Shown here piece after piece: positions 3,890 to 40,750 of a DNA stretch of 64,000 nt. The notes under the pieces were generated by a model, which was not told the origin of the DNA, searched no databases, and saw only the letters and a list, made by a program, of their open reading frames with translations. Each line of letters begins with the position of its first letter. The first letter of the stretch is position 1. A program made the translations under genes and the position numbers. The stretch lies in NCBI RefSeq assembly GCF_013315695.1, contig NZ_CP054353.1; one strand, written 5' to 3'. The stretch is from Escherichia coli (GTDB taxonomy: Bacteria; Pseudomonadota; Gammaproteobacteria; Enterobacterales; Enterobacteriaceae).

Positions 3890-6748
3890 CTAATCACGAT
3901 CGCGGAAGCTGTTCATCCCGGCGGATTGTCTGCGAATTTCTTCCCGTACAGCCTCCCCCACCATTCTGGCAAGGTCGCGCGGGTTCTGCGTCGCCACGTT
4001 GTGAAGATGAACGTGGATTTCCCCACCGAACACAGACGACGGTTCAGGAGAGCGCGAAGCCTCCCGGGTAGCCGGGGAGACTGGCGCCCACTGCTTAACC
4101 TCCACGGAACGGGAAGCATCCCGGGAGACCTCCGGAGGCACAGGCGAAACCGGAGGCATAACCGGTAGTCCTGGCGCAACAGTCGGCTCATTCCACTGCC
4201 CGCGAACAGCCAGCGCACGGGGGAGGTTTTTAAACACGATATCGCCGGGACCGATACGCTTGCGGGCTTCATGAAGCATGCCCGACGTATTACCCTCGAT
4301 ACCTTTAAGCCTGCGAAGAACGGCGCTGTTACCGCTGGTTATGCCGGGGGGATTGCTGGTTTTACCGTCATTCTGTGGATTACCATTCCCGTTGTTATTA
4401 TTGCTGACAGGAGCGGCCGGAGTGGGTACCCAGGACTTCTGAACCATTTTTTTCTGAACAGGGTCCCACTCCCACATAACCGGAGCCTTTGCAACTGCCT
4501 CAGCACGATTTTTCGCCCGCTCAACTTCAGAAGGGAGCACGCCGAGTTTTTCCAGCACCCATGCCAGGCCGTCCATCAACGCCTGAAGAGGAGTAAGCGC
4601 AAGCGATATCGCCCCGCTGAGCACGCGACCAAAAGTTTCCCCGACCGAGGCACACCGTTCAAGAGATTCATGGCTGGTCTGAACAGGTGTGAGTAACCGC
4701 CTGAACCAGTCATACACCGTGGACACCGCACCCGATACCAGATCAAACAGCGGCGCAAACTGAGCAACACCTTCACGAACAGGCGCAAGGCCAGCCCACA
4801 GCGCCCGGAATGTTCCGAGCATAAAAGCCTTAACCTGTTCCCAGTGACGCCATATGAGCAGCGCTCCACCGGCAAGGGCAGCAACCACGAGACCAACAGG
4901 ACTGAGAAGACCGGCAAGCGCCCCGCCCAGCACTGAAACCGCACCGGATACCATCCCCCACAGTGCCGGAAGGCCAGACAGGCGAAGGGCAAGACCACCA
5001 ACGCCAGTTGCAACAGAGGAAAACCCGCCACCAAGAAGCGCAGAGCCAAGCTGAAGTTTTGCAAAAATACCGGTCAGCACCCCGGAGGTCAGGGACAACG
5101 CCCCAAGGGCTGTCGTGGCCGCAAGAACACCACCGGCAACAATCGCCAGAGTACGCACCAGTTGCGGATTATCCTGAACCCATCCTCTGAGCCGTTCACC
5201 CCATGATACCGCTACCTGAACAAGTTCGCGGAGGTCATCGGTGACAAGGGCAACGACATCACTGCGTATACCGGAGAAGACACCAGACAGGCGATCGGCA
5301 TCACCGCCAAGGTTATCCCGCAGAACATCACCCATACGCCGGGCGGTTCCCTGCACCTGCCCCATACGGTCAGACACCGTTGCCAGCGAGCGGAGAAAAT
5401 CCGGGATCTGATCAACGGCCAGATCTTCGATGGGTGTGCCGAACAGCGCTATCGCCGCATTGGCTCGTTCCGCAGGATCCTGAATCTTCAGCAGCCCGGC
5501 AGCCGTTCGCTGCATTGCCTCGCGAGCAGCCGCGCCTCCGCTGGCAATCGCTGACAACATTTTTTCCGCATTAAGGCCAATCAGCCCATAAGCCTCAACG
5601 CTTGCTTTGGACATATCCGAGCCACGAATACTGAATTCCTTGACGGCATCGCCGGTTTTATCCAGGGCGAATTTCCCCTGCTGCGCCATGCTGACAAGCA
5701 GCGTCATGGTTTCAGAGCCGGAGAGCCCCATATTGCGGAAATGCGTGGAATACTCATGCAGAATTTCAGGAAGTTCGCCGCGCATTTCGGCGGACATTTT
5801 CTGCATGCCTGCCGCCATCAGGTCCACGGCCTCACCTGCATTTGCAGCGAGACCGTTTTTCAGCATGATGCCGGCCGCCTGAACCTGTTCAGCCACATTA
5901 CCGCCGGTGACCTGAGCAAGATCGATTGCCTGCCGTGTCACCCTCTCTAGTTCTTCAGTCCCTACAGTACCCAGTGCGCCAAGCGTGCTTTGCGCCGCAG
6001 CTGCCGCTTCGGAAATCATCGCGATATCCGTAGCCGCACCTGACGCACGGATGTTCTGAATCATACGGCTGTAGCGCTGGCCGTCTTCTGCGCTGCCTCC
6101 ACTCTGTGCCGCAATGAGCGCACCCTGCCGTTGCTCTTCAACAACAGGTGCAACCGCACGTCCGGCGGCGTACAGACCAGCACTGCCCGCTGCCATGGCA
6201 AGCGCACCGCGCTGGCTGAGTTTACCGGCGATATCCTGAACACGATCGTAACGTTGTTGTGCCTGCGTGACGCGCGCAAGCTGAGCCTGCTGGCGCTCAA
6301 GCTGATCGTTGTATTCCTGCGTTCGCCTGATTGCTTCTTCAGTGGTGCGGTTACTTCCGTCCGCCCGTATACCGTGAGACTCCAGCTCACGACCGGCTTC
6401 CCGTAGCCGGGACTGGTGAAGGGCGTAAACGGTATTAAGACGCTCAATCTTTGCAGTCAGTGAGCGGATAGCTTCCTGCTGTTTTTCCGTCAGTGTCGTG
6501 CCAGTACGCTGGACCTCCAGGAGGCGCTGAAGTCGCCCACGCGCCTCGTTCAGGCTGTTTTCAGTCGAGGCAACCTGCTGACGGGCACGGGAAAACGCAT
6601 CACTGCTTCGCTGGAGTGACTTAAGAGCGTTCTGCGTGGAGGAAAGAGATTCGGAAAGCGCGCCGGTCATTTCCCGGGCGCGCCTGACGGGTTGGGTGAG
6701 ACGGTCGACCGCAGTGAGGGCTACACGTATCTGGAGATTATTACTCAT
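3890..6748 (-). CDS. phage tail tape measure protein, P2 gpT-like
   Basis: long helical/Gly-rich ORF; track ORF starts at GTG 6802, ATG start (MSNNLQ) at 6748 overlaps the E' stop. Confidence 0.85.
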   Translation of the reverse strand: MSNNLQIRVALTAVDRLTQPVRRAREMTGALSESLSSTQNALKSLQRSSDAFSRARQQVASTENSLNEARGRLQRLLEVQRTGTTLTEKQQEAIRSLTAKIERLNTVYALHQSRLREAGRELESHGIRADGSNRTTEEAIRRTQEYNDQLERQQAQLARVTQAQQRYDRVQDIAGKLSQRGALAMAAGSAGLYAAGRAVAPVVEEQRQGALIAAQSGGSAEDGQRYSRMIQNIRASGAATDIAMISEAAAAAQSTLGALGTVGTEELERVTRQAIDLAQVTGGNVAEQVQAAGIMLKNGLAANAGEAVDLMAAGMQKMSAEMRGELPEILHEYSTHFRNMGLSGSETMTLLVSMAQQGKFALDKTGDAVKEFSIRGSDMSKASVEAYGLIGLNAEKMLSAIASGGAAAREAMQRTAAGLLKIQDPAERANAAIALFGTPIEDLAVDQIPDFLRSLATVSDRMGQVQGTARRMGDVLRDNLGGDADRLSGVFSGIRSDVVALVTDDLRELVQVAVSWGERLRGWVQDNPQLVRTLAIVAGGVLAATTALGALSLTSGVLTGIFAKLQLGSALLGGGFSSVATGVGGLALRLSGLPALWGMVSGAVSVLGGALAGLLSPVGLVVAALAGGALLIWRHWEQVKAFMLGTFRALWAGLAPVREGVAQFAPLFDLVSGAVSTVYDWFRRLLTPVQTSHESLERCASVGETFGRVLSGAISLALTPLQALMDGLAWVLEKLGVLPSEVERAKNRAEAVAKAPVMWEWDPVQKKMVQKSWVPTPAAPVSNNNNGNGNPQNDGKTSNPPGITSGNSAVLRRLKGIEGNTSGMLHEARKRIGPGDIVFKNLPRALAVRGQWNEPTVAPGLPVMPPVSPVPPEVSRDASRSVEVKQWAPVSPATREASRSPEPSSVFGGEIHVHLHNVATQNPRDLARMVGEAVREEIRRQSAGMNSFRDRD

Positions 6749-29157: not shown

Positions 29158-29328
29158 TGTCAGTTATCATCTTCGGTTACGGTTATCGGCAGAACGCCCT
29201 GCCGCTGACAAGAGCTTATTTGCCTGACCAATCTACTCCACATGATAGATAACTATCATTTATAACATCTCATTGATTAGTCTTTATTTTTCATTGTGTT
29301 ACAAATAACAGCTCTGTCAAAAACAGCG

Positions 29329-29355
29329 AAATTAACTACACCATTAACTACACCG
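29329..29355. repeat. 27-bp direct repeat AAATTAACTACACCATT(A/G)ACTACACCG, left copy (right copy 40368-40394); candidate integrase binding or att sequence
   Basis: two copies, one mismatch, each followed by clustered CGAACAA motifs (29356-29395 and 40400-40510). Confidence 0.5.
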
Positions 29356-30293
29356 TTTCACGAACAATATCGAACAACCACGAACAAAGATCAACACGCT
29401 TTAACCGTTATCATTTTCCGGCTATCCGTTATGAAGCTGGTGGATGTTCCCCGATATGGGGATCCCCACCTACCGGAATTTTTGCCAGGTTAAATGTTAA
29501 CCTCTGCCCTGTTAACATTTTTACCAAAAAGGTAGTTAACATTTTTTGCACGCAACCAGATGAATCATAAAGAAAAAATCAACAACAACGCTTCATCAGG
29601 CAGTTAACATGTTAACTACTACGAAACGGTAATTTTTTCTCTGCGTGAGAGGGGGCGCGGTGTCCAGCTTATTCGTTGTTCGTGGCTAACCACTCCCCCC
29701 CCATGCCGGATTTTTTTTCCGGTTAACTGTTAATCAGGCTGGTGGGTTTTACATACCCTTGATCACCGTAATGATGATCCAGATCTGCACATTTCCACCA
29801 ATGGTGGAAAAGCCCACAGCAGGCCGCCCAGCCTCCACCAATGGGGTAAAAGCATCAACCGTAACGAAAGTCGTTATGGTTGCCACCGATACCCCAAATT
29901 TGGGTATCACGAGTAAGCCCCAAAATCTGGGTGTTACTCTTACCACCCAAACTACGGGTAGTTTCCGTAGTTTCATGGTCGAGTTGCAGATCTGCAACTC
30001 CCCCATTAACCACAGGCGAATTTCCGCCTTCGGTCATTCCTTAATCATCTGCGTAATCATAATGATTATTCAGCAAGCGCAATTTTGCGCTTTGCTTAAA
30101 GTTCAGCGAGTTACCGCGCCGACTTCCTCAAATTGAGGTTTCCGAAAATATCAGCGGGTTAGCGATTAAGCTGATCATTAATTAAACTGCGAAAATTTCG
30201 TAGTTTGTGACTGTCTTTCAGGCAGCTTGTTAACAGTCCTCAGAAGCGAGGGATGTAGCCACCCATTTTTGGTCCGTCGGGAATATCAACCAG

Positions 30294-30575
30294 TTACCGC
30301 CGCAACCGCTCCGGCTTCTTCCAGTGGTACGTTATTTTCTCCTTCTCCCGATACATCTCCACGCGGCGACGGTAGGCCAGCAACTCAAGAACTCTGGTTC
30401 GTATGTTGCGCATATCCACGCCATTAAGTTCTATACCATCACGGCGCATCACCTCCGCAACAACACGCGCATAATTTTCAGCGGTCACGCTGTCCGGCTG
30501 CGTGGCCTGTTCGTCAACCTGCTGGCTGATTCCGGCAACGCGGCGGATTAATCCCAGTATTTCGGCTTCTGTCAT
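30294..30575 (-). CDS. hypothetical protein (93 aa) next to the left cos site
   Basis: ATG with G-rich SD; no family recognised. Confidence 0.45.
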   Translation of the reverse strand: MTEAEILGLIRRVAGISQQVDEQATQPDSVTAENYARVVAEVMRRDGIELNGVDMRNIRTRVLELLAYRRRVEMYREKEKITYHWKKPERLRR

Positions 30576-30610
30576 TGTGCCCCCATCGTTCTGATAGTCT
30601 GGTGTCGTCG

Positions 30611-30840
30611 GGTCCTTCCTGGAATTATGGCCCGTTACGGGGCGGCGACCTCGCGGTTTTTCGCTATTTATGAGATTTTTTGAGGGGGTGGTTGTTGTTT
30701 AATTGTTTGGTATATCTAATTGATAAGTAAGGTAAAAATAAAATAAATACAACAACCTTACGATGTATTTTGATGTCATTAATGTGAAAAAATTCAATGA
30801 TATCAAATGGTTTTGTAAAAACACATGGTTGTTGTATCGC
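30611..30840 (+). other. lambda-type cos site, copy 1 (cosQ-like, cosN GGGCGGCGACCT at 30640-30651, cosB-like region pointing rightward)
   Basis: GGGTCCTTCC..GTTACG-GGGCGGCGACCT-CGCGGTTTTTCGCTATTTATGAG closely matches remembered lambda cos; three GGTTGTTGT repeats (30690, 30749 inverted, 30828) as candidate TerS sites. Confidence 0.6.
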
Positions 30841-31008
30841 GTATTTGATGGCGTAACAGAAAGTGATTTTTAACTTTACCGCTCTGTAACTACGGATTAT
30901 TCCATGCTGGCACGGAGAACGGCTACGGCATGACGCCACCCAGCCTATACAGCACAGTAAAGCCGATAAATTGTTAATCACGCGCAGCAATGCGTGTGAT
31001 TTTTGCAC

Positions 31009-31206
31009 ACTTCCGGTTAACGGGTACGATGTCCGGTTTTAGTGTCTGTTTTTTGCGCATGTCCGGTTCATAGAAAGCATGTTTTTATATTTTTCATATG
31101 GTTAACTTGCAGAGAAACCGGACATGGATCCCGGAAAATTTTCATAAATAGTGAAAACGCGCGAGGTCGCCGCCCCGTAACGGGTCCATATGCCGGAAAG
31201 GACCCG
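31009..31206 (-). other. lambda-type cos site, copy 2, inverted (cosN on the minus strand at 31164-31175, cosB-like region pointing leftward)
   Basis: minus strand reads GGGTCCTTTCCGG..CCCGTTACG-GGGCGGCGACCT-CGCGCGTTTTCACTATTTATGAAAATTTTCCGG, near-identical to remembered lambda cosQ-cosN-R3; three ATGTCCGGTT repeats (31029, 31059, 31116 inverted). Confidence 0.65.
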
Positions 31207-31208
31207 TA

Positions 31209-31233
31209 AAAAAAAGCCGGATTTCTCCGGCCT
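31209..31233 (-). terminator. rho-independent terminator ending the island capsid operon
   Basis: minus strand GGCCGGAGAAATCCGGC followed by T8, directly after the 137-aa gene stop. Confidence 0.55.
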
Positions 31234-31237
31234 TGTC

Positions 31238-31651
31238 TCAGATGGTTTTCAGTATGCGATCGATGTCGCCGTCATCGCCCTGGTTTCTGCCATCGTACGC
31301 CATGCCAGCTGATACGGCTTGCGGGCTGTGCATGTCCATAAAGTTTTCAAAGGCTGCGGTAAGCTCTGGTGCAACCTTTGGGCGCTCCTGCTCTATGGTC
31401 ATGTTCAGGATTTCACGAGCATTATCGACGCTAATACATGGCACGTTTGCCATTGCACGTAACAGCGGCTGATAGTCGTTATGTTCATGAAGCGCCATAA
31501 TCGCATCAGCGCGCGGCTTGTCCTGTTCTTCCAGTTTGTTGAGTTGATATACGGCCTCGTAGGTTGATAAACCTCTGTCAGCCATTGCCCGCGCTTCTGC
31601 TTTAAATTTACTCGCCAGCGGTAGCGCCATGATGCTTTCATTCGTTGCCAT
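31238..31651 (-). CDS. hypothetical protein (137 aa), last gene of the capsid operon
   Basis: ATG with AGGGGAA SD; no family recognised; candidate packaging-redirection factor by position only. Confidence 0.5.
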   Translation of the reverse strand: MATNESIMALPLASKFKAEARAMADRGLSTYEAVYQLNKLEEQDKPRADAIMALHEHNDYQPLLRAMANVPCISVDNAREILNMTIEQERPKVAPELTAAFENFMDMHSPQAVSAGMAYDGRNQGDDGDIDRILKTI

Positions 31652-31663
31652 CGTTTCCCCTGC

Positions 31664-31999
31664 TTATCGCGCCAGCGGCTGAACGGATACGCCAGAACCC
31701 GCAAAGGCGGCGCATTTTTTCGCGTCAGTGTCGGCGCTCTCAGGCCAGTTTACGGCGGCGATATTAAATATCCCCGTCTTGTAACACTGTGCTGATTTCT
31801 GCTTTGACGTGTCCACGGGGTACGAAGTCAGATAAACAGCCTTGCCAGATTCCTGACCATCCCACGGCTTAAACTCGCCATTGTCCGCCAGCATCAGCGG
31901 GGTAAATTCCTGAATAACGCCAGCATCAGCGGCAAAATGTACCAGCGTCGTGGATACCTGCTGACTGCCTGCAAATAACTCAATGTATGGAGTGTCCAT
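31664..31999 (-). CDS. head decoration protein, lambda gpD-like
   Basis: 111 aa; shares TPLMLD, WDG, YK(S/T)G.F, WPE, AFAG motifs with remembered lambda gpD (110 aa). Confidence 0.65.
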   Translation of the reverse strand: MDTPYIELFAGSQQVSTTLVHFAADAGVIQEFTPLMLADNGEFKPWDGQESGKAVYLTSYPVDTSKQKSAQCYKTGIFNIAAVNWPESADTDAKKCAAFAGSGVSVQPLAR

Positions 32000-32011
32000 A
32001 GAATCCCCCCG

Positions 32012-33067
32012 TTAACCAATTTTGACGGTAACAAATTTGCGAATATCTGCCGGAACCGGCTGCGGTGCGCTGTGCGTCTGCACGTACTCAATCGCCGGAT
32101 CGCCGTCCTCAATCCAGTTTTTCGGGTAAAACATGTTTTGCGTTGCGCCCGTTCTTACCGCTTCCTGTTCCAGGATCGCACCATAGGCCACCAGCCCTTT
32201 ATTGTTGGTGTTGCCCAGGACCAGCAAATCAGGCTCAAGGAAATATTTTTCTGTGCCGTCGCTGTCAGTGTATTTGCCGGAATAGACGATAAGGGCCAGA
32301 TCACCAAGATAGCCTTTAAAGCTCACCACTTCGCCCAGGTTTTTACATGCCAGCTCTGCGGCGGATTCTGAACCACGGGAGAGATCGTACAGTTCACGGA
32401 ATTTTTTAAAGCTGCGTAACATGCGCCATACATCAACGCCCATAATCATGACGTTTGCGGGGCAACCTGCCTGATCTGCGTATAGCTCAATGTCATAGAT
32501 TGGGTCGTGTATGTCTTTGTCCTGCTCTGACCATTTTTTACCGTCGGCCTGCTCTATGATGTTTTTTTCCGGTATCTTCCAGTCGATTTCATAGCGCTCT
32601 ATGCCTTCGCCCTCAATGATGTTTTTTCCGGTCGTTACCGCATTTACCGCCAGCCATTCCACGCGCGCTTTAATGGCGTTTATCTGGCGGCGCATGTTGC
32701 CAGTAATCAGGCGCATACGGCGGTAGGTAGGGTCGTTAAGCTGTGCTGGATCTTCTCCAGCCATGCGCATTATTGTTTTTAATGGATCGATTTCGTGTTT
32801 TGGCTTCATGTAGCCAGGGCGAATAATGCTTGTTTCGTACCCTTTATCGCGCTGAACCTGGCTACCCACCATAGGCGAACAAAACGCCGACATAGTGACT
32901 TCTTCAATATCCAGGTTATCTAACATGATGTCCTGTGTGTTGAATGTCGCCACGTTCGGGAAAAACAGCGCGGTAAACAGCGGACTGAATTTAAATTCCG
33001 CAATATCCTCGCGATTCAGGTACGCAAAAAGCTGGTTAGTGTTAAGTGCTATTGCTTTTACTGTCAT
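32012..33067 (-). CDS. major capsid protein, lambda gpE family
   Basis: 351 aa; collinear similarity to remembered lambda gpE (FKF.PLF..LFF, PGY(V/M)KPKHE, DP.YRR.R, YPKNW..GDPA, SAP); start overlaps the upstream stop (TAATG). Confidence 0.85.
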   Translation of the reverse strand: MTVKAIALNTNQLFAYLNREDIAEFKFSPLFTALFFPNVATFNTQDIMLDNLDIEEVTMSAFCSPMVGSQVQRDKGYETSIIRPGYMKPKHEIDPLKTIMRMAGEDPAQLNDPTYRRMRLITGNMRRQINAIKARVEWLAVNAVTTGKNIIEGEGIERYEIDWKIPEKNIIEQADGKKWSEQDKDIHDPIYDIELYADQAGCPANVMIMGVDVWRMLRSFKKFRELYDLSRGSESAAELACKNLGEVVSFKGYLGDLALIVYSGKYTDSDGTEKYFLEPDLLVLGNTNNKGLVAYGAILEQEAVRTGATQNMFYPKNWIEDGDPAIEYVQTHSAPQPVPADIRKFVTVKIG

Positions 33068-33273
33068 TATTCACCCCCGTGAACCTGATTCATACCCAGC
33101 GCCGCGCGTAAATAGGCGCGTACCTGCCAGCCTGTTGACGGCTCAACCATCGCCAGCGGATCAAGTCCTGCCGCAATGCCTGCTTTTACGTTCTGCTGGT
33201 GGCGTTCCTTGAGCGCCTTCACGATGTCGGGGCTTATGTACACCGAAACACCGCCTTTTTTCTCTTCAGCCAT
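33067..33273 (-). CDS. hypothetical protein (68 aa), first gene of the capsid operon
   Basis: ATG with AAGAGG SD; translationally coupled to the capsid gene. Confidence 0.5.
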   Translation of the reverse strand: MAEEKKGGVSVYISPDIVKALKERHQQNVKAGIAAGLDPLAMVEPSTGWQVRAYLRAALGMNQVHGGE

Positions 33274-33302
33274 AGTAAGAAATTCCTCTTTGACTTAAAA
33301 AA

Positions 33303-33357
33303 TCATAACTGGATGTTCATCCAGTTATGATTATAATCATGATTGCATTTTGTGCAA
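33303..33357 (-). promoter_or_regulatory. promoter of the island capsid operon with a 28-bp palindromic operator
   Basis: minus strand TTGCAC-N16-TATAAT immediately followed by perfect palindrome TCATAACTGGATGAACATCCAGTTATGA. Confidence 0.5.
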
Positions 33358-33527
33358 TGATATTGAGTTGCGTTGCAAATTATGAAATTATTATCCCGAT
33401 CATGTGTGTCAGTGCACCAAAAAACCTCATATGCAAAAGCCCGATAAGCCACCTCTGACCTTATCGGGCTTTTTTTGGGCGCAAAAAAGCCGGATTGCTC
33501 CGGCTGTGTGGTGTGGTTCTGGTATTC

Positions 33528-33776
33528 CTACTCTGCTAATTTGCTCAGCCCCATGTCTGCGTAAGTGCGATTTACTGCATTTCTCAGGTCTGCATAGTTC
33601 TCCGTTGGCGGCTCCGGTGGCCTCTGTGCCTTCCTGGAACATTCCAGCCGTCGCATCGTGATGTGATGCCGTTCCTTGTCTGTCTCCACCAGCATCATGA
33701 CTTCACCCCATCGCGCCGCCGCCCTCCGGTAAAATCCTTTCGCTTCGAGTTCTTCCGCTATGCGGTCATGTACCAT
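33528..33776 (-). CDS. small regulator, possibly PerC/Pch-family transcriptional activator
   Basis: 83 aa from ATG 33776 with GAGGGGG SD; LEAKGFYRRAAARWGEV resembles the PerC-family core as remembered; weak call. Confidence 0.35.
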   Translation of the reverse strand: MVHDRIAEELEAKGFYRRAAARWGEVMMLVETDKERHHITMRRLECSRKAQRPPEPPTENYADLRNAVNRTYADMGLSKLAE

Positions 33777-33786
33777 CGTCACCCCC

Positions 33787-34197
33787 TCAGAACGGAATAT
33801 CATCACCGTAAGGGTCATCGCCTCCCGCTGGTGGCTGATTACCCTGTGCGCCTGTGGTTTTGCGTCTGTTCCCGCCAGGACGTGCCGCACGGGCACTGAT
33901 TACGCTGTCTGCAATAACCTGATAACCCTGACGCGTCTCCCCGTTCTGTCCGGTCCACTGGCTTACCTGCATCGTGCCGGATACGCTGGCAACGTCGCCT
34001 TTTTGATGTTTAGCCAGGAAGTCGGCCTGCTTACCAAATGCGATGACCGATAGCCATAACGTCGCCTGTCCGTCCTGTGCCTGACTGCATGGCAGTGATA
34101 CCGCCATACGCGCCAGCGTCATCGGTGTGCCCTTGCTGGTCTGTTTTACCTGCGGGTCGTCCACCAGCCGACCGTAAGCCGCTATCTGTGCTGTCAT
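33787..34197 (-). CDS. single-stranded DNA-binding protein (SSB-like)
   Basis: 136 aa; OB-fold pattern (W..V.AFGK.A, KGD.V.V.G, W....G..R) and C-terminal acidic tail ...DDPYGDDIPF typical of SSB. Confidence 0.65.
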   Translation of the reverse strand: MTAQIAAYGRLVDDPQVKQTSKGTPMTLARMAVSLPCSQAQDGQATLWLSVIAFGKQADFLAKHQKGDVASVSGTMQVSQWTGQNGETRQGYQVIADSVISARAARPGGNRRKTTGAQGNQPPAGGDDPYGDDIPF

Positions 34198-34445
34198 GAT
34201 TCCACCTCTCCGGTTTTAACGTTGATGGTTGTTACCTGTTCCGCTTCGGCAATCTCCCGTTCTGTCAGCGTGGCAAAGTTTGCCGCCGCCGTGGTCATGA
34301 ATGCGCTTATCAGGTCGGGATGTTCCTTCGCGTATCCTTCCCGCGTGTGGCGGTCTATCGTTCTGATTGCCACCTTTAAGGTGTGCTCAGTCATGTCTAA
34401 CGCTTTATATTTTGGCTCTGTTCTGTCTCTGCGTGTTCTGGTCAT
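34194..34445 (-). CDS. hypothetical protein (83 aa)
   Basis: ATG 34445 with GAGGTGG SD; stop overlaps the SSB start (ATGA). Confidence 0.4.
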   Translation of the reverse strand: MTRTRRDRTEPKYKALDMTEHTLKVAIRTIDRHTREGYAKEHPDLISAFMTTAAANFATLTEREIAEAEQVTTINVKTGEVES

Positions 34446-34469
34446 TTGCCACCTCAATTTATATATATA

Positions 34470-34805
34470 GAAACATGTGCGGGTTATGCGGGTTATTGGG
34501 TTATCTTAGCGTGCTAACCATTTTTTATCCTTTTATATCAGTATTTTGCAAAACACCCTGTTTATTATTTGCCCACCACGTAACCCGCAAAACGCTCAAA
34601 ATAACCCGCAAACGGGGTTTTTTCTGCGGGTTACGCATGACTGTCCGGTGTTACTTCAGTTATTCGCCTGCGGGTTATAATCGTGCTTTTGCGGGTTATA
34701 AATGCCCTTTTGCGGGTTACGTGCGGGTTATTGGTTTCCTTTATATTCATGCACTTAATACACTTATACACAGGATAACCCGCATAACCCGCAATTTTTT
34801 TCCTC
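34470..34805. repeat. iteron array, candidate replication origin of the island
   Basis: at least 12 copies of GCGGGTTAT / ATAACCCGC in both orientations within ~330 bp of AT-rich DNA, directly downstream of the primase-replicase gene. Confidence 0.65.
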
Positions 34806-34815
34806 ACACAGGGGA

Positions 34816-36939
34816 TTAATCTTCATCATCAGGCTGGAACATCAGCACGTAAAAAACATGCTGCTTACCCCCAATCTTGCCCAGCGCCTTTTTTTTGTAT
34901 CGGCGATCGCTTCCCTTCTCCAGCATTCCGGCAGCATCCAGGGCACGCGCAAAATGCGCCGGATTAAATCCCTTCGCTATCTCACTCTCAAACACGTGCG
35001 GGAACGTGTAATAGCGCATCTCGTCATCTTCGTTGCGAATGCTCCCTTTTCTGTATCCGGCAAGCTCTTTAATCGGTAAATCACGCTCATCTGTATTGGG
35101 GTACGGAAGGTAGCGGCTAAACCCAAACGACGACAAAAACGCCTCAGCCTGTTCAACCATCTGTTTAAATTCCCTGTTACCCGTGCCGAACTCCTTCACC
35201 CAGGCATTAAAGTTATGCTGTATCGCGTCGCGGCATTCCTGCACGACCCAGCCAGTTACATGACCGGAAAGCACAAGCGCGGCCTCCAGTATGGCGAAAC
35301 GTTCACCCACGCGGTGGACCTGCTCGCCGTAGCTCTCCGGTATCAGGTTGCGCCACCGTTCGCGGCATTCCCTTACCGTATCCTTTGCCTCCTGCTGGTG
35401 GCCTGCCAGCCATTTAACCCACTCACGACCCGCCGCCCCGTGATTTGCTGTCCAGGCATCCTTTAACGCGTCAGCATGTTCCTTACCGTTGCTGTATTCG
35501 TGAAATTTCGTGGCTTTTTCCATCGGAACGTTAAGCAGTCGGACAAGCTGCCCCGCCTTAACTTTTATCCCCTCACTTTTGAGGAATGTCTCAACGTCCA
35601 TTTCTCCGGTGCTGATTGCCACCGTTCGCCAGTGTTTGATCTCCCTGTTGCCGCCATCCTTCGCCCCCTGCAATTTCCCTGAACCGTTAAACAGCGTATA
35701 AGCAGACGTTGACACTTCCCGCGCATTTCCGGCCTGGCCTATCTCATCCAGTGGTAAAAGCCCGTCATTATGGGCCTCGGCCTCATTGGCAATACCTAAC
35801 GCCGTGCCGTACCAGGTCAGCCGCTGCGCGTCCGGCTCTCCCCATAAACTTGATGCGATGTTCTGCGTGGTGGTCTTACCTGCCGATGACTGTTCGAAAA
35901 GATGCACCCCGAAGCCGTCAGCACCCACAAGGCCAATTAAAGGCGCTGCCAGTGACGTTGCCACACCCAGCATCATTGAGGCATTACCGCCAGCCAGCCG
36001 CGCCACACTCTCGCGCCAGCCCTCCGCCGTACCCGCCACGGAATAACCGTTAATCGCGGCGCTTTTTCCGGTAAACAGGATCGGTTTTTCAGAATCACCA
36101 ATGATCGAACCGTCCGGCATGATGTACGCGCCAAAATGCCAGCCCGTTGTTGTGCTTAACTGCCATTCCTCATGGCTTCCGCTTAACTGCATCCAGTCCG
36201 CCAGGATTGCCCTGTATTTGCCGTTGGTTGTCACGTTCAGCCCGTGATCTTTAAGTAACCGCCAGCCGTCACGGTCGCCGATACCACCACACGGGATCGC
36301 CATTGTGATGACTTCATGATTTGCTAATTTTTTCCAGCGCATGACGCGGTAATGCTCTTTACCGATCGTCCCCGTTCCCAGTAGTTCAAGCGGAGAACAT
36401 AACCACGTCTCAGGCCGGATAATTTCGCCTGACTGCTTATCCACTTTGGGCGTTACCCAGAAAACACCATCGGCGCGACTTTCAACGCGTGGCTTTAATT
36501 CGTCATCGCTATGGCTTCCGGTATCTTTTTTCTTTACCGGAAACTCAATAACCAGACCATCAGAAAGATTCTGCCGCTCACGGGCCAGATATTCGCGCCA
36601 GTTCTCCACCTCCTGACCGTGCATTCCATCAGGGTAAAAATTTGCATCCTGTACGCCTGCCGCCGCCAGCTTCTGACCAATCGCCTTGATCATTACTGGC
36701 TCAAGATGTCCGGCCCTGAATATGCGTACTGATTTTCGGCCTTCCGGCACAATTTGCAGCTTATCCAGTTCGGCAAGTTGTTGCTCTCCAAGCCAGACAG
36801 GAGGCACGTTATCGCCAGCCAGTCGCCCGTCCTGTTCCTGCCACTGTTTCGCATGTGCCCAGGCATCACTACCCGCAAAAATGATGACTTCCGTCATTTT
36901 GTCACGTGGCTGGTGTTTTAAATTTGGCGCTTTTTTCAT
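34816..36939 (-). CDS. primase/replicase (P4 alpha-like or PICI Pri-Rep-like)
   Basis: ~707 aa from ATG 36939; Walker A-like SSAGKTT; position next to the iteron ori; ATG overlaps the upstream stop. Confidence 0.75.
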   Translation of the reverse strand: MKKAPNLKHQPRDKMTEVIIFAGSDAWAHAKQWQEQDGRLAGDNVPPVWLGEQQLAELDKLQIVPEGRKSVRIFRAGHLEPVMIKAIGQKLAAAGVQDANFYPDGMHGQEVENWREYLARERQNLSDGLVIEFPVKKKDTGSHSDDELKPRVESRADGVFWVTPKVDKQSGEIIRPETWLCSPLELLGTGTIGKEHYRVMRWKKLANHEVITMAIPCGGIGDRDGWRLLKDHGLNVTTNGKYRAILADWMQLSGSHEEWQLSTTTGWHFGAYIMPDGSIIGDSEKPILFTGKSAAINGYSVAGTAEGWRESVARLAGGNASMMLGVATSLAAPLIGLVGADGFGVHLFEQSSAGKTTTQNIASSLWGEPDAQRLTWYGTALGIANEAEAHNDGLLPLDEIGQAGNAREVSTSAYTLFNGSGKLQGAKDGGNREIKHWRTVAISTGEMDVETFLKSEGIKVKAGQLVRLLNVPMEKATKFHEYSNGKEHADALKDAWTANHGAAGREWVKWLAGHQQEAKDTVRECRERWRNLIPESYGEQVHRVGERFAILEAALVLSGHVTGWVVQECRDAIQHNFNAWVKEFGTGNREFKQMVEQAEAFLSSFGFSRYLPYPNTDERDLPIKELAGYRKGSIRNEDDEMRYYTFPHVFESEIAKGFNPAHFARALDAAGMLEKGSDRRYKKKALGKIGGKQHVFYVLMFQPDDED

Positions 36940-37235
36940 TTCTGCTCTCTCCACGCGGCAATCATGTTTTTCAGTTCCTGTAGTTTTTTATCCACATCCA
37001 CACGTGACACATGGTTATTTCTGGAAGTCGGGATTTCCCGCCTGAATCTGCTAATAAAGATCTCCACGTTCAGCGAACTATGAAATGAATAGCCATCACG
37101 AATAAAATACACACGGTCAAACATCAGTTCTTTTACCGTTACTCTGTTGCCGTTCTTATCCAGATAAATAGCGCCGGGGATAATTTTGGGGTGTGCATAA
37201 CCGCTGGCAGTCAAGCCAGATAAATATGTTCTCAT
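36936..37235 (-). CDS. hypothetical protein (99 aa)
   Basis: ATG start; coupled to the primase. Confidence 0.45.
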   Translation of the reverse strand: MRTYLSGLTASGYAHPKIIPGAIYLDKNGNRVTVKELMFDRVYFIRDGYSFHSSLNVEIFISRFRREIPTSRNNHVSRVDVDKKLQELKNMIAAWREQK

Positions 37236-37241
37236 GATTAT

Positions 37242-37562
37242 TTATCCCCGATTTGAATCAGTATTCGCTTTCTTTATAGCATTTAATGCATTTGTGGCAT
37301 TTTCAATGGTGCACCGTAACGAAATATCAAACTGCCCAAGCATTGCCAGTAACAAACCGATATTACCCATATCAATGCGCATGGCCTTTTCGTCATATTC
37401 CTCATTTTCTGACGCATACCACATCAGGCTACCAATTGACGCAATACCCATTGATATATTGTCAGTAGCCCCATCCGCAGCGGAATAAACTTTTTTAGCA
37501 ATATCATGCTCACAGTTAAAATGCGGATTAATCAGGTACTGGTAATTGGTCATGTCAGGCAT
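37242..37562 (-). CDS. hypothetical protein (106 aa)
   Basis: ATG start; first gene of the leftward operon. Confidence 0.45.
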   Translation of the reverse strand: MPDMTNYQYLINPHFNCEHDIAKKVYSAADGATDNISMGIASIGSLMWYASENEEYDEKAMRIDMGNIGLLLAMLGQFDISLRCTIENATNALNAIKKANTDSNRG

Positions 37563-37839
37563 GGCACACCCCCTGACGAATACGGGCGGCGAATACCATC
37601 ACGCAGCCAGCCGGGGATTGCTGGCGTGCTTCCTGTTCGCTGCTGGCCTCAATGGTAATCACGCGCGGTTGTGCCGTGCTCAGGGCGATAAAACGCCAGA
37701 TGTATTTATTCAGGTTGTGCGAGTCCCGCCCTTGCGGGTGTGTGGTATGATTTAACATAGCTACCTCGATACTGTTGCTATCGTTGGTTGTTAGACGCCC
37801 TGCATGTGTTGCGAGCACTGCGGGGCGTTGCTCTTTCAG

Positions 37840-37885
37840 GTGTATTTCACCTTTGCTTTTTAATTTACTCACTGGTGAAATACAC
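37840..37885. promoter_or_regulatory. operator-like perfect 12-bp inverted repeat GTGTATTTCACC-N22-GGTGAAATACAC in a divergent promoter region
   Basis: lies between the divergent 106-aa gene and the small + strand gene. Confidence 0.45.
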
Positions 37886-37951
37886 TTCAAGCCTTTTTTT
37901 ATCATTTTTTTTGCGTATACTGACATACACCAATTTTTAGGAGATCCAGAA

Positions 37952-38131
37952 ATGGCAACTGGTGCAAAGAACGCAAAATCACAAATGACAACTGTCAGAA
38001 TCCCACATGAAGTAATGGATGATATTGAGCAACTTAAAGAACCTGGCGAAAGTACCGCTGGTTTTTTAGTTACTGCCGCAAAAGGCGAGATCAAACGCCG
38101 CCAGCGCCGCAAGGCCAAAGAATCAGAATAA
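37952..38131 (+). CDS. small DNA-binding protein, possibly ribbon-helix-helix (59 aa)
   Basis: ATG with AGGAGA SD; TTVRIPHEVMDDIEQL resembles an RHH beta-strand/helix; basic C-terminus. Confidence 0.4.
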   Translation: MATGAKNAKSQMTTVRIPHEVMDDIEQLKEPGESTAGFLVTAAKGEIKRRQRRKAKESE

Positions 38132-38188
38132 TCACTATCAGCGCCGTGGCGTGAGGTACTCCGGCGCATTGCTTTACAGGTCAGTACT

Positions 38189-38398
38189 ATGAGCAAAAAA
38201 CACCGATCAGCAGATGAGATTTTTGCAGAACAACGAAGATTGCTTTTGCAAAGTATCATTTCACGCCAGCAAGAGAAGGCGCGAGCTAAACAAATGCCAC
38301 CAAATACAGAACCAGCGCCTACAAGATTTGCGCTTGATGATTTTCTCGATAAACACCCCAGGGTAATGAAAGCAAACAAAAACCGCCCACCAGCCTGA
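38189..38398 (+). CDS. hypothetical protein (69 aa)
   Basis: ATG start; followed by a terminator at ~38441-38468. Confidence 0.35.
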   Translation: MSKKHRSADEIFAEQRRLLLQSIISRQQEKARAKQMPPNTEPAPTRFALDDFLDKHPRVMKANKNRPPA

Positions 38399-38440
38399 TA
38401 GCGGCTATCATCCCCGTGCTTATGTTTAGTGTTTCCAAAC

Positions 38441-38468
38441 TGGCGACCTCCCAAGGTCGCCTTTTTTT
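38441..38468 (+). terminator. rho-independent terminator after the rightward small-gene pair
   Basis: GGCGACCTCCCAAGGTCGCC followed by T8. Confidence 0.55.
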
Positions 38469-38488
38469 TATGTGCCATTGTCACCACC

Positions 38489-38698
38489 TCAAGCGGCCTT
38501 GCCTGAATTAATGCGTTCGCGGTTTTTGACCCACGCCACAACCTCAGACTTAACCCAGCCAACAGAACGACCGCCGAGACTGATACGGGAGGGGAAGCGG
38601 CCCTGCTTTTCCATCTCGTAACGAGTTGTGCGGCAAACGCCTGTTAGCTCTCTGCATTCTTTTTCGCGGATTACGCGATCTTCATTTATTTCACGCAT
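38489..38698 (-). CDS. alpA: AlpA-family transcriptional regulator / excisionase-like
   Basis: 69 aa from ATG 38698; helix-turn-helix pattern (CRELTGVCRTTRYEMEKQGRFP...GGRSVGWVKSEVVAWV) and position next to int. Confidence 0.65.
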   Translation of the reverse strand: MREINEDRVIREKECRELTGVCRTTRYEMEKQGRFPSRISLGGRSVGWVKSEVVAWVKNRERINSGKAA

Positions 38699-39107
38699 AC
38701 AAAAACCTACATAAAAATTACGTATATAAACTTTTCTCTTAGCTGTAGATATATGAGATCGGATATTACTTAGATTCTTTTTCACCTCTTAAATTAAAAA
38801 CACAACCATGCTAAAGGCTTTGTTCGCTAAGGTTCGTAGAAGCTCGTTAGTGTTTAAAATCGTGTCACGAGTTTTTAAGCGACGCAACAAAAAATGTCGT
38901 TATTTGGCATGACACCTGAATTACCTCATTAAAAACAAATAGATAAACCATCAGGTGTTGGAACAATCAAGAAACAGAGAATAAGAACTAAGAAGAAGAC
39001 ATTTCAAATTTTTTCAATACTTGACACATATAAATCGTCGATATTTGCCGATATTCGACGATTTATTTTAGAGGGCCATTTTTCGCAAGAAAAACAGCCG
39101 TAATTTG

Positions 39108-40346
39108 TCAAGAATTTTGGGAGTAAATTCGCGGGGTCATAACAACGATTTTTTCATCATTGTTCTGGAGAAGCTCGAGACGCTCAACCCATAGATTAAG
39201 AGCGTCACGTTTTGCATCGAGATAACGGGAGTGATTATAGACTCGTTGCATTCCTGGCAACTGGTGCGCGGTTAGCTGCTCCACTACATGAGGATCCACG
39301 CCTAAATCGTTCAGCATCGTTGTAAACGTGTGCCGGATGTCGTGCAACGTCCAGGGGGCTTGATTAATGCGTCTGTGTGCCGTTCTTCCGTACTCTGATA
39401 CAGATGATTGCCCTTTCAGTTCTCCGAGTAATAAGCCCGTGTGTCGGTTCTGCTCCACCAGCTTCGTTACGAACGGCAAGATCGCTTCCGGTATTGGCCT
39501 GAATATTGCTACCTTCGTTTTGCTGTGTTCTTTCGGCACAGTCCAGAGCATTTCTTTAAAATCCCATTCCTGGACCTCAGAGCGTCTTAGCTCAGTGGTA
39601 CGGCATCCGAAGACAATCAGGAGGCGAATCAGGGCGCTGTAGTACGGTGTGTAAATTTTTTCATCCAGGGCGCGTAGTAATTCCCCAAGCTCCTTGTTTG
39701 TTAGTACGCGCTCGCTTATTTCTGCTTTTTTCCCAACATCACCTACAACCATATCATCTAGAACGTTGGTAATTGCGTAGCGTCGTTTGCGGCAGTACTT
39801 AAGCGCCTGCTTGCATACCTGTAACAAAAATCCTGCTGATACCGGATTACGCATAGCAAGCTGATCAAAACAGGTCAGCCAGTGGCGTAGCTCGCATTTT
39901 TCCAGCGGCATAGCACCAATATGGCTGATTATGTGTGTATTGATCCGGCTTTTCAGAGATTCGTAATCTGTGCGCTTTTCCTTCGCGTACGATTCAAGCC
40001 AGTAAGTGAGCGCTTCCTTAACCGTAACAGGTGATAACGCTTCCTGTACGGTGTGATTAAGCTCATGGCGTGGATTTTTACCCTCAGCAAGCCAGGCGCG
40101 ACACTGCGACGCTTTTTCCCTGGCTGCTTTCAGGCTCAAATCTGGATAATTTCCCAGCCTCAGACGTTCAGGGGCTACCTTCCTGCCTGTTCCGGCCCTG
40201 TAAGTGAAATACCAGGTTAACAGGCCATTGGTTGAATGCCTTACGCTAAGGTTGCCACCATCATTAAAAAAGGTGTTTTTTGTGGTTGGTGATCCGCTTA
40301 ATTTTCGTAAAAGAGTGTCGCTAAGTCTATGAATTGCCCTGCTCAT
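39108..40346 (-). CDS. tyrosine site-specific integrase (P4-type)
   Basis: 412 aa; C-terminal catalytic motifs (R..TELRRSE, HDIRHTF, Y near the C-terminus); at the island edge. Confidence 0.9.
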   Translation of the reverse strand: MSRAIHRLSDTLLRKLSGSPTTKNTFFNDGGNLSVRHSTNGLLTWYFTYRAGTGRKVAPERLRLGNYPDLSLKAAREKASQCRAWLAEGKNPRHELNHTVQEALSPVTVKEALTYWLESYAKEKRTDYESLKSRINTHIISHIGAMPLEKCELRHWLTCFDQLAMRNPVSAGFLLQVCKQALKYCRKRRYAITNVLDDMVVGDVGKKAEISERVLTNKELGELLRALDEKIYTPYYSALIRLLIVFGCRTTELRRSEVQEWDFKEMLWTVPKEHSKTKVAIFRPIPEAILPFVTKLVEQNRHTGLLLGELKGQSSVSEYGRTAHRRINQAPWTLHDIRHTFTTMLNDLGVDPHVVEQLTAHQLPGMQRVYNHSRYLDAKRDALNLWVERLELLQNNDEKIVVMTPRIYSQNS

Positions 40347-40750
40347 GTTTCGAATTTCCGGTCATCAAAATTAACTACACCATTGACTACACCGAGCATC
40401 GTACAAGGGCGAACTGTGACGAACAAGGGCGAACAAGAAAAACGAAATTATCCTTTATAATCATAGAAATAAATGAGATACCTACACCATGACGAACACC
40501 CACGAACACTAACTGATAAATAACTATCATCTATCGTTGGCATCAGCGACATCTGTCACATTCCTGTCAATAGCGTTAACTGCTTCAAATTTTTGATTCA
40601 TACCTGCCCCCTGGCCCCTGTCAAATGCTTGACGGCTCGCCCTAATTCTCTAAATTGTATTTCTAGAGTTGGCGAGGTTTTGAACAGCCCCCTCTCTGAC
40701 CCCGGTTTATTCCATCTTACTTGTATAAGATTTGCGAAGGATGTCGAAGC

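Follow-up and report, generated by a model that had tools for sequence, protein, structure and literature searches.

A repeat array downstream of a DUF927-type pri-rep gene is a probable replication origin of an Escherichia coli PICI

The closest described counterparts of the locus analysed here are the replication origins of the SaPIs and of the E. coli PICIs. The SaPI Rep protein is a self-loading helicase with a C-terminal winged helix that recognises short repeats, and SaPI origins contain 6–12 repeats immediately downstream of rep, arranged around an AT-rich centre with at least two opposite-facing repeats on each side (PMC9371898). E. coli PICI origins are organised in the same way, and the rep-ori segment of EcCICFT073 maintains a temperature-sensitive plasmid in a manner that depends on both rep and ori (PMC6092414). 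Autonomous replication, and the binding and melting of the origin by Rep, have been demonstrated only for the SaPIs and EcCICFT073 (PMC9371898, PMC6092414). For EcCIEDL933, an O157:H7 island that is the prototype among the capsid-forming PICIs of E. coli, replication after induction of a helper has been reported (bioRxiv 10.1101/2022.09.08.507074). Our literature search found neither a dissection of the EcCIEDL933 origin nor one of a DUF927-type replicon in Gram-negative bacteria.

Here we describe a dense array of short repeats in the intergenic DNA behind a DUF927-type pri-rep gene, within a 64-kb stretch of E. coli chromosome that was analysed in full (the window). We assign a probability of roughly 0.85 to the reading in which an EcCI-type PICI located between clpS and cspD uses the array as its origin of vegetative replication. 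The feature belongs to the known class of SaPI and PICI origins, of which it is a well-formed example and not a new kind, and it leaves the current view of satellite replication unchanged.

The island and its repeat array

The window carries clpA, clpS, cspD, and macAB, and the island lies between clpS and cspD (Table 1). Its att core, ATGATAGTTAT, is the one given for PICIs integrated between cspD and clpS (PMC6092414 Table S1, Fillol-Salom et al.). Gram-negative PICIs have been defined by a specific att site, a length of ~10–15 kb, int, alpA, and pri-rep genes that run in one direction, a lack of lysis and tail genes, and a dependence on a helper phage for induction, replication, and packaging (Fillol-Salom 2018). 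The island has the att site, is 11.3 kb long, carries int, alpA, and pri-rep in the same direction, and, in the ORFs submitted to family searches, showed neither a tail nor a lysis gene. The virion genes among the ORFs searched are limited to those for the capsid and decoration proteins plus a protease-C-terminal-like ORF (31238–31651), and the other minus-strand genes of the island include a DUF4222 gene and one for a PerC-like regulator. The gene order is that of EcCICFT073 and EcCIIHE3034, the second of which occupies the same chromosomal site. The element is a classical E. coli PICI. Together, the initiator helicase, the putative origin, and the island-encoded SSB would make up a complete and apparently intact replication module, which favours the view of the island as an active phage satellite and not as the remnant of a prophage.

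Table 1. Positions in the window of the island, its genes, and the parts of the putative origin.
Feature	Position	Strand	Basis or remark
PICI, 11.3 kb	29249..40530	-	11-bp att core at 29249-29259 and 40520-40530
int, tyrosine integrase	39108-40346	-	family search
alpA, AlpA-family regulator	38489-38785	-	Pfam PF05930, E 2e-15
pri-rep, 712-aa ORF	34816..36954	-	DUF927 gene upstream of the array
Proposed repeat-recognition domain, Pri-Rep residues ~620-712	34819..35097	-	sequence identity follows the repeat word
Whole intergenic origin region, 370 bp	34446..34815	-	pri-rep stop to start of next gene
Proximal tandem pair, TGCGGGTTAT twice, 9-bp spacing	34775..34793	-	18/18 relatives have it, each lineage with its own word
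Proximal AT-rich tract, 43 bp, 33% GC	34732..34774	.	in short-form and long-form origins; candidate core-origin melting site
Four opposite-orientation repeats (34669, 34690, 34711, 34722)	34669..34731	+	spacing 21, 21, 11 bp
Central group	34580..34634	.	34580 and 34601 (- strand, 21 bp apart) facing 34625 (+): head-to-head pair
Distal AT-rich tract, 75 bp, 35% GC	34505..34579	.	base composition
Distal tandem triple	34478..34504	+	34478 and 34487 intact; 34496-34504 decayed (TTGGGTTAT)
(TA)n palindrome TTTATATATATAGAAA at distal edge	34458..34473	.	counterpart TTTTGTATATATACAAAA conserved across word groups in long forms
orf83, small 83-aa gene	34194..34445	-	PHROG 1231; next gene after the array
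ssb, island-encoded single-stranded-DNA-binding protein, DDIPF tail	33787..34197	-	TIGR00621 above cutoff; PHROG 44
capsid, lambda-E-like major capsid protein	32012-33067	-	family search
decoration, gpD-like	31664-31999	-	family search

The 370-bp gap between pri-rep and orf83, two minus-strand genes, holds 11 copies of the full repeat word TGCGGGTTAY, seven of them starting on the plus strand (34478, 34487, 34625, 34669, 34690, 34711, and 34722) and four on the minus strand (34580, 34601, 34775, and 34784). A decayed twelfth copy in the distal triple is an intact repeat in two relatives (L001 and L007). An earlier note on this DNA had claimed at least 12 copies of GCGGGTTAT; the dense cluster stands, and the count is revised to eight exact copies, three with a final C, and one degenerate copy. 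Exact GCGGGTTAT occurs nine times in the window, with eight of these occurrences in 34479–34792, compared with an expectation of ~0.5 per window, and a count of nine was reached in 0 of 100 shuffles. The 8-mer core, GCGGGTTA, is found 11 times in the same interval (316 bp) versus four times in the remaining 63.6 kb, a rate that predicts 0.02 copies in 316 bp (Poisson P ~5e-27).

The gap has a GC content of 42%, falling to 35.5% in the spacers alone, compared with 53–56% in the flanking genes. Measured from the TAA stop codon of pri-rep (34816–34818), the first repeat is 23 nt away, a position that is the same in 18 relatives. Repeats in adjacent pairs spaced by 9 bp are found at both outer ends of the array, and the spacing of the inner copies is 11 or 21 bp. 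Together, the outer tandem arrays make up an inverted repeat of 26 nt with 88% complementarity, and the inner pairs with 21-bp phasing make up one of 36 nt with 81% complementarity. The proximal module consists of two minus-strand repeats, the 43-bp tract at 33% GC, and four plus-strand repeats, an exact fit to the organisation described for SaPI origins and E. coli PICIs (PMC9371898, PMC6092414). The word counts and the contrast in GC content bear out the earlier description of AT-rich DNA at 34458–34815 with repeats on both strands, several in adjacent pairs, directly after the stop codon, so that this observation is correct apart from the count of exact 9-mers.

Few other signals were detected in the gap. 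A lone near-consensus DnaA box, TTATACACA, lies inside the proximal AT-rich tract (34764–34772, one mismatch); it is partly conserved in L001 and L006, not in L007, and such boxes are not enriched over chance. No sigma-70-like promoter was found in 34446–34815, and the only terminator-like hairpins in the origin region are two weak ones at chance level. An Rfam scan of 33500–35500 gave no credible match to a known RNA. The single-strand folding score (z = -5.3) is a trivial outcome of the inverted repeats and provides no evidence of an RNA or single-stranded DNA structure.

Elsewhere in the island, three further sets of repeated sequences were seen. Six GTTAAC palindromes fall within 232 bp of non-coding DNA (29496–29727) in the tail of the island beside the att core, and the window as a whole contains 33 copies of this palindrome where ~12.6 are expected; the cluster might act as a cos or other packaging site, or else bind a regulator. 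A 27-bp imperfect direct repeat, AAATTAACTACACCATTRACTACACCG, lies just inside each att core (29329–29355 and 40368–40394), and its two copies are candidate arm-type sites for the integrase. Two copies of a terminator-like hairpin, AAAAAAGCCGGATT(T/G)CTCCGGC, are 89% identical (31210–31236 and 33483–33509) and bracket the capsid and decoration block at a distance of 2.3 kb from each other.

Pri-Rep and the co-variation of its C-terminal domain with the repeat word

The pri-rep ORF is intact and encodes Walker A and Walker B motifs, with its true start probably the RefSeq-style ATG at 36939, which gives a protein of 707 aa. The protein consists of an N-terminal alpha/beta domain, a DUF927 AAA+ helicase core (Pfam, residues 173–440, E 8e-48), and a C-terminal winged-helix-like domain with a weak match to the Cch HTH family (residues 637–706, E 0.0016). 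By sequence, its closest solved structure is the SaPIbov1 Rep helicase (8TCH, E 1e-13), in which the Walker A sequence TSTGKT aligns with SSAGKT of Pri-Rep, followed by a weak match to the SCCmec helicase Cch (5DGK, E 0.0045). The AlphaFold model of the last 242 residues, with a pLDDT of 67, contains a helical bundle followed by a strand, two helices, and a beta-hairpin, and its best matches in the PDB are also 8TCH and 5DGK, with low TM-scores. Pri-Rep is thus a DUF927 helicase of the SaPI Rep/Cch type, the type expected of a SaPI or PICI initiator, in which the model of the C-terminal domain is only moderately confident.

The N-terminal ~130 residues are 80–94% identical to the Pri-Rep of EcCICFT073, and the remaining ~560 residues of the two proteins are unrelated; the N-terminal segment is a shared, portable domain. 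An AlphaFold2 model has a pLDDT above 90 over residues 1–130 and looks like a generic alpha/beta fold, and comparison of the model with the PDB gave no significant fold match (best E 0.075) and no primase or Toprim signal. Residues 1–170, encoded by 36430–36939, have no match of any kind in Pfam and no sequence match in the PDB. The earlier note had called the gene a primase-replicase. The matches to 8TCH and 5DGK and the DUF927 core support the 'rep' half of that name, and the 'pri' half found no support in any search run, since the N terminus lacks a primase or Toprim match; the 'primase' label of Pri-Rep is unproven.

The repeats themselves are under purifying selection within E. coli. Comparison of the window with L001, an E. 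coli relative with an origin 85% identical, revealed differences at 0 of 88 repeat bases versus 64 of 282 spacer bases (Fisher P 6.6e-9). In two other relatives, L006 with 10 copies and L007 with 12, every copy reads GTGGGTTA instead of GCGGGTTA, and this one-base change explains 11 of 11 differences at repeat positions in L007 and 10 of 12 in L006. Such an in-step change, in which the number, orientation, and spacing of the sites are retained, would be expected of sites read by a single co-evolving protein.

To locate the part of Pri-Rep that follows the repeat word, 18 aligned Pri-Rep proteins were scored for identity segment by segment. Only the last ~95 residues track the word. Within a word group, residues 620–712 are 64–100% identical (48% for L005, the most distant member), and between groups they are at most 51% identical, except for groups whose words are one base apart (66–70%). 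The core (residues 201–600) does not cluster by word: in L005, from Escherichia albertii, where the word is TGGGACAAG, residues 201–600 are 93–95% identical to the window protein and residues 620–712 only 35–39%. Neither do DUF4222, orf83, and SSB track the word. The SSB proteins are 66–70% identical to that of the window whether or not the word is shared, and DUF4222 identity ranges from 31% to 97% inside one word group. Because these flanking genes vary independently of the word, the unit of exchange is the C-terminal domain together with the array. The two are adjacent, and linkage therefore contributes to their co-variation, although the sharp edges of the exchanged block, which runs from the domain boundary to the edge of the array, argue against linkage as the full explanation. 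With co-variation of word and C-terminal domain over five groups, Rep and origin appear to form a specific matched pair.

Conserved layout and comparison with known replicons

Of 5426 complete E. coli genomes, 194 contain the array, and a search with one genome per species identified 14 loci, spanning Escherichia albertii, Citrobacter, Serratia, Pantoea, Yersinia, Rahnella, and others, that encode proteins 58–75% identical to the window Pri-Rep. All 13 of the loci that extend beyond the stop codon have a dense array immediately past it, with a word that varies by lineage. Five word groups were distinguished: GCGGGTTA, GTGGGTTA, TGGGAYAAG, GTTGGTTCA, and YCGGTTCA. An origin carries no word but its own, except that three GTTGGTTCA origins each have a single stray YCGGTTC copy, and the rest of each locus (~6 kb) contains almost no copies of the word. 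In a phage collection, the sole entry similar to the origin was a 2.2-kb fragment, which matches a portion of it.

A single layout of sites is shared by 10 of 10 long-form loci, which represent all five word groups. Proceeding from the stop codon, it comprises a tandem pair with 9-bp spacing, an AT-rich tract of 53–64 bp, four repeats of opposite orientation spaced by 11, 21, and 21 bp, a spacer, a head-to-head pair (23–24 bp), a further copy at 21 bp, a second AT-rich tract, and a tandem triple with 9-bp spacing that ends at a conserved (TA)n palindrome. The central 23–24-bp inverted pair is kept in every long form, and the spacing of the four repeats is identical in all long-form relatives and in the E. 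coli short forms. The distance from the distal edge of the array to the next gene is not conserved, and in L006 the next ORF is far away. In Yersinia pekkanenii (L013), a second block of seven GTTGGTTCA repeats (4239–4498) lies in a disrupted pri-rep upstream of a normal origin and appears to have arisen when the origin was duplicated or rearranged.

Eight loci from three word groups have a short form, in which only the proximal module is present, and the E. coli short forms lack orf83 as well as the distal half of the origin. The best match covers less than 80% of the query in 55 of the 194 E. coli genomes, and in the nine shown among those 55 (H22–H30) only the proximal 40% is covered. Because the proximal six sites, two and four around the AT-rich tract, are the only part retained by the short-form relatives, they are probably sufficient and would constitute the minimal origin. 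The distal six sites, arranged as three, an AT-rich tract, and three, look like a roughly mirror-image second module, which might provide a further loading site so that the origin fires in both directions, or might control copy number or expression.

Compared with experimentally defined systems, the window most resembles SaPI1, SaPIbov1, and SaPI5, in which the origin also lies 3' of rep, contains opposite sets of repeats, and is paired with a homologous helicase core (PMC9371898). In the window, the array is directly 3' of pri-rep, and its 11 intact repeats and one decayed repeat form opposite sets around an AT-rich tract. The C-terminal winged helix of the hexameric SaPI Rep helicase sets origin specificity, and we liken the C-terminal domain of Pri-Rep to it. 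The window differs from the SaPIs in its Gram-negative host, in its repeats of 9–10 bp versus 5–8 bp, and in its long form with two AT-rich tracts, a fixed layout of 12 sites, and rough overall dyad symmetry. Its Pri-Rep also differs in having an extra N-terminal domain that is common to E. coli PICIs, with no separate pri gene.

EcCICFT073 shares with the window the series DUF4222, pri-rep, ori, small ORF, ssb, perC, capsid, and decoration, with ori in the same intergenic slot. In contrast, the EcCICFT073 Pri-Rep carries a 'DNA primase family' (D5/P4-like) module that is 12–24% identical over residues 201–712, and its repeat word is GGTAGAYA, with nine copies in 288 bp, rather than TGCGGGTTAY. 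There are no copies of GGTAGAYA in the window origin and none of GCGGGTTA in the origins of EcCICFT073 and EcCIIHE3034. As both the helicase module and the word differ, the two are not the same replicon, and because EcCICFT073, whose origin is the only one of an E. coli PICI to have been tested functionally, belongs to a different helicase family and uses a different word, transfer of function to the window rests on homology with the SaPIs. When the literature was searched for the repeat word, nothing but unrelated primer sequences came up, with the repeat words that Fig. 2a of PMC6092414 shows for several E. coli PICIs lying outside the comparison.

A nearly identical replicon lies in L004, a 15.5-kb capsid-forming O157:H7 island with a layout that matches EcCIEDL933. 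Its origin is 98.2% identical to that of the window, with 11 of 11 repeats in place, and its Pri-Rep shows 99% identity over the core and 100% over the C-terminal domain. However, L004 is integrated next to roxA, its DUF4222 protein is only 31% identical, and it encodes a complete set of HK97-type capsid, portal, HNH, TerS, and TerL proteins where the window has a lambda-type capsid and a decoration protein. The SCCmec helicase Cch (5DGK; PMC7581432) resembles Pri-Rep in its DUF927/MCM-like fold family and in having a C-terminal HTH of the same family, a likeness that concerns the protein alone.

Other classes of origin are less similar. Iteron plasmids with the initiators RepA, pi, and TrfA resemble the window in placing initiator repeats beside an AT-rich unwinding element and in relying on winged helices for specificity, but their initiators lack helicase activity and depend on DnaA, DnaB, and DnaC, and their repeats are direct and ~17–22 bp long (PMC4980987). 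A classical iteron plasmid origin was rejected because the window initiator is a homologue of AAA+ helicases, the 9–10-bp repeats lie on both strands, and there is one DnaA box with one mismatch. This single box and its lack of enrichment also led us to reject a DnaA-dependent origin. Replication of phage P4 from ori and crr uses the alpha protein, TGTTCACC type I origin repeats, and a distant crr. A P4-type origin was rejected, as TGTTCACC does not occur in 29249–40530 and the helicase family is also different.

Proposed mechanism and alternative explanations

The SaPI Rep homologue, the PICI context, the matching layout, and the co-variation of word and C terminus in 18 relatives agree with the proposal of the earlier note that the array has the layout of a satellite or PICI origin served by its own initiator. 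Everything expected of such an origin at the level of the sequence is present. We infer the following course of events from these comparisons. After helper-phage induction and excision of the island, Pri-Rep would bind TGCGGGTTAY through its C-terminal winged-helix-like domain. As a DUF927, MCM/Cch-like protein homologous to SaPI Rep, it is predicted to act as a self-loading hexameric helicase, and the opposite-orientation repeats that flank the AT-rich tract would place its oligomers face to face. The AT-rich DNA would then melt, allowing the helicase to load itself without DnaA or DnaC, and the host polymerase, together with the island SSB encoded just downstream, would copy the element for packaging.

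A further possibility, which we put forward tentatively, is that the long-form origin works as a fixed 12-site, two-module, roughly palindromic machine. The features that suggest it are the outer 9-bp tandem arrays, the 21-bp inner phasing, the two AT-rich tracts, the head-to-head pair, and the (TA)n palindrome. If so, two helicase hexamers would be loaded in opposite directions, as at a viral double-hexamer origin. It is part of the same speculative proposal that the word and the last ~95 residues of Pri-Rep have been swapped together at least five times with the layout unchanged, and these natural swaps of domain and word would then allow the recognition code of a family of self-loading helicases to be read. 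Another option is that the distal module is a separate switch for copy control or expression that short-form islands have lost.

An array of this kind might instead be mainly regulatory, serving as an operator or handcuffing site that controls copy number or the expression of orf83, ssb, perC, and capsid, with replication starting elsewhere or depending on the helper. The distal triple directly adjoins the ribosome-binding site of the gene that follows, the head-to-head pair resembles the operators of plasmid Rep proteins, repeats of this kind in plasmids double as control sites (PMC4980987), and the distal half, being absent from short forms, is dispensable for the function of the core. However, no sigma-70-like promoter was found, the interval before the next gene varies among relatives, and both layout and position match experimentally defined SaPI and PICI origins (PMC9371898, PMC6092414), so that we consider a mainly regulatory array unlikely. 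A control role confined to the distal half would be compatible with the array as an origin and would not replace it.

That the array is a decayed relic in a defective, non-replicating island is more doubtful. One of the 12 repeat copies is indeed degenerate, but the other 11 are perfect and under purifying selection in E. coli, the pri-rep ORF with its Walker A and B motifs is intact, as are int, alpA, and ssb, and the origin is found in 194 of 5426 genomes. It is highly improbable that the array is an accessory cos or pac site bound by a small terminase or a redirecting protein. Packaging sites often contain repeated protein-binding sites, and PICIs of this type carry cos (PMC6092414), yet the arrays of the window and the O157:H7 island are 98% identical in islands with unrelated packaging modules, and the word tracks the C terminus of the helicase and no packaging gene. 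The six GTTAAC palindromes in the tail of the island are a better candidate for a packaging signal.

The relatives form a set well suited to swaps of specificity, as they combine five words in one layout with a C-terminal domain that can be swapped and with naturally occurring short and long forms. The words TGCGGGTTAT, GTGGGTTAT, TGGGACAAG, and GTTGGTTCA could serve as cognate and alternative sites in such a comparison. The same set could be used to annotate the origins of PICIs and capsid-forming PICIs across the Enterobacterales, which are now unannotated 'intergenic' DNA. Two relatives came from a plasmid database, where L020 (NZ_CP069874.1, 15,995 bp) and L021 (NZ_CP148430.1, 12,152 bp) are deposited as closed circular 'plasmids'. 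They are complete genomes of a capsid-forming PICI and a PICI, respectively, with integrase genes and arrays of their own, and are probably excised satellite episomes rather than plasmids; their circular deposits are consistent with an episomal form.
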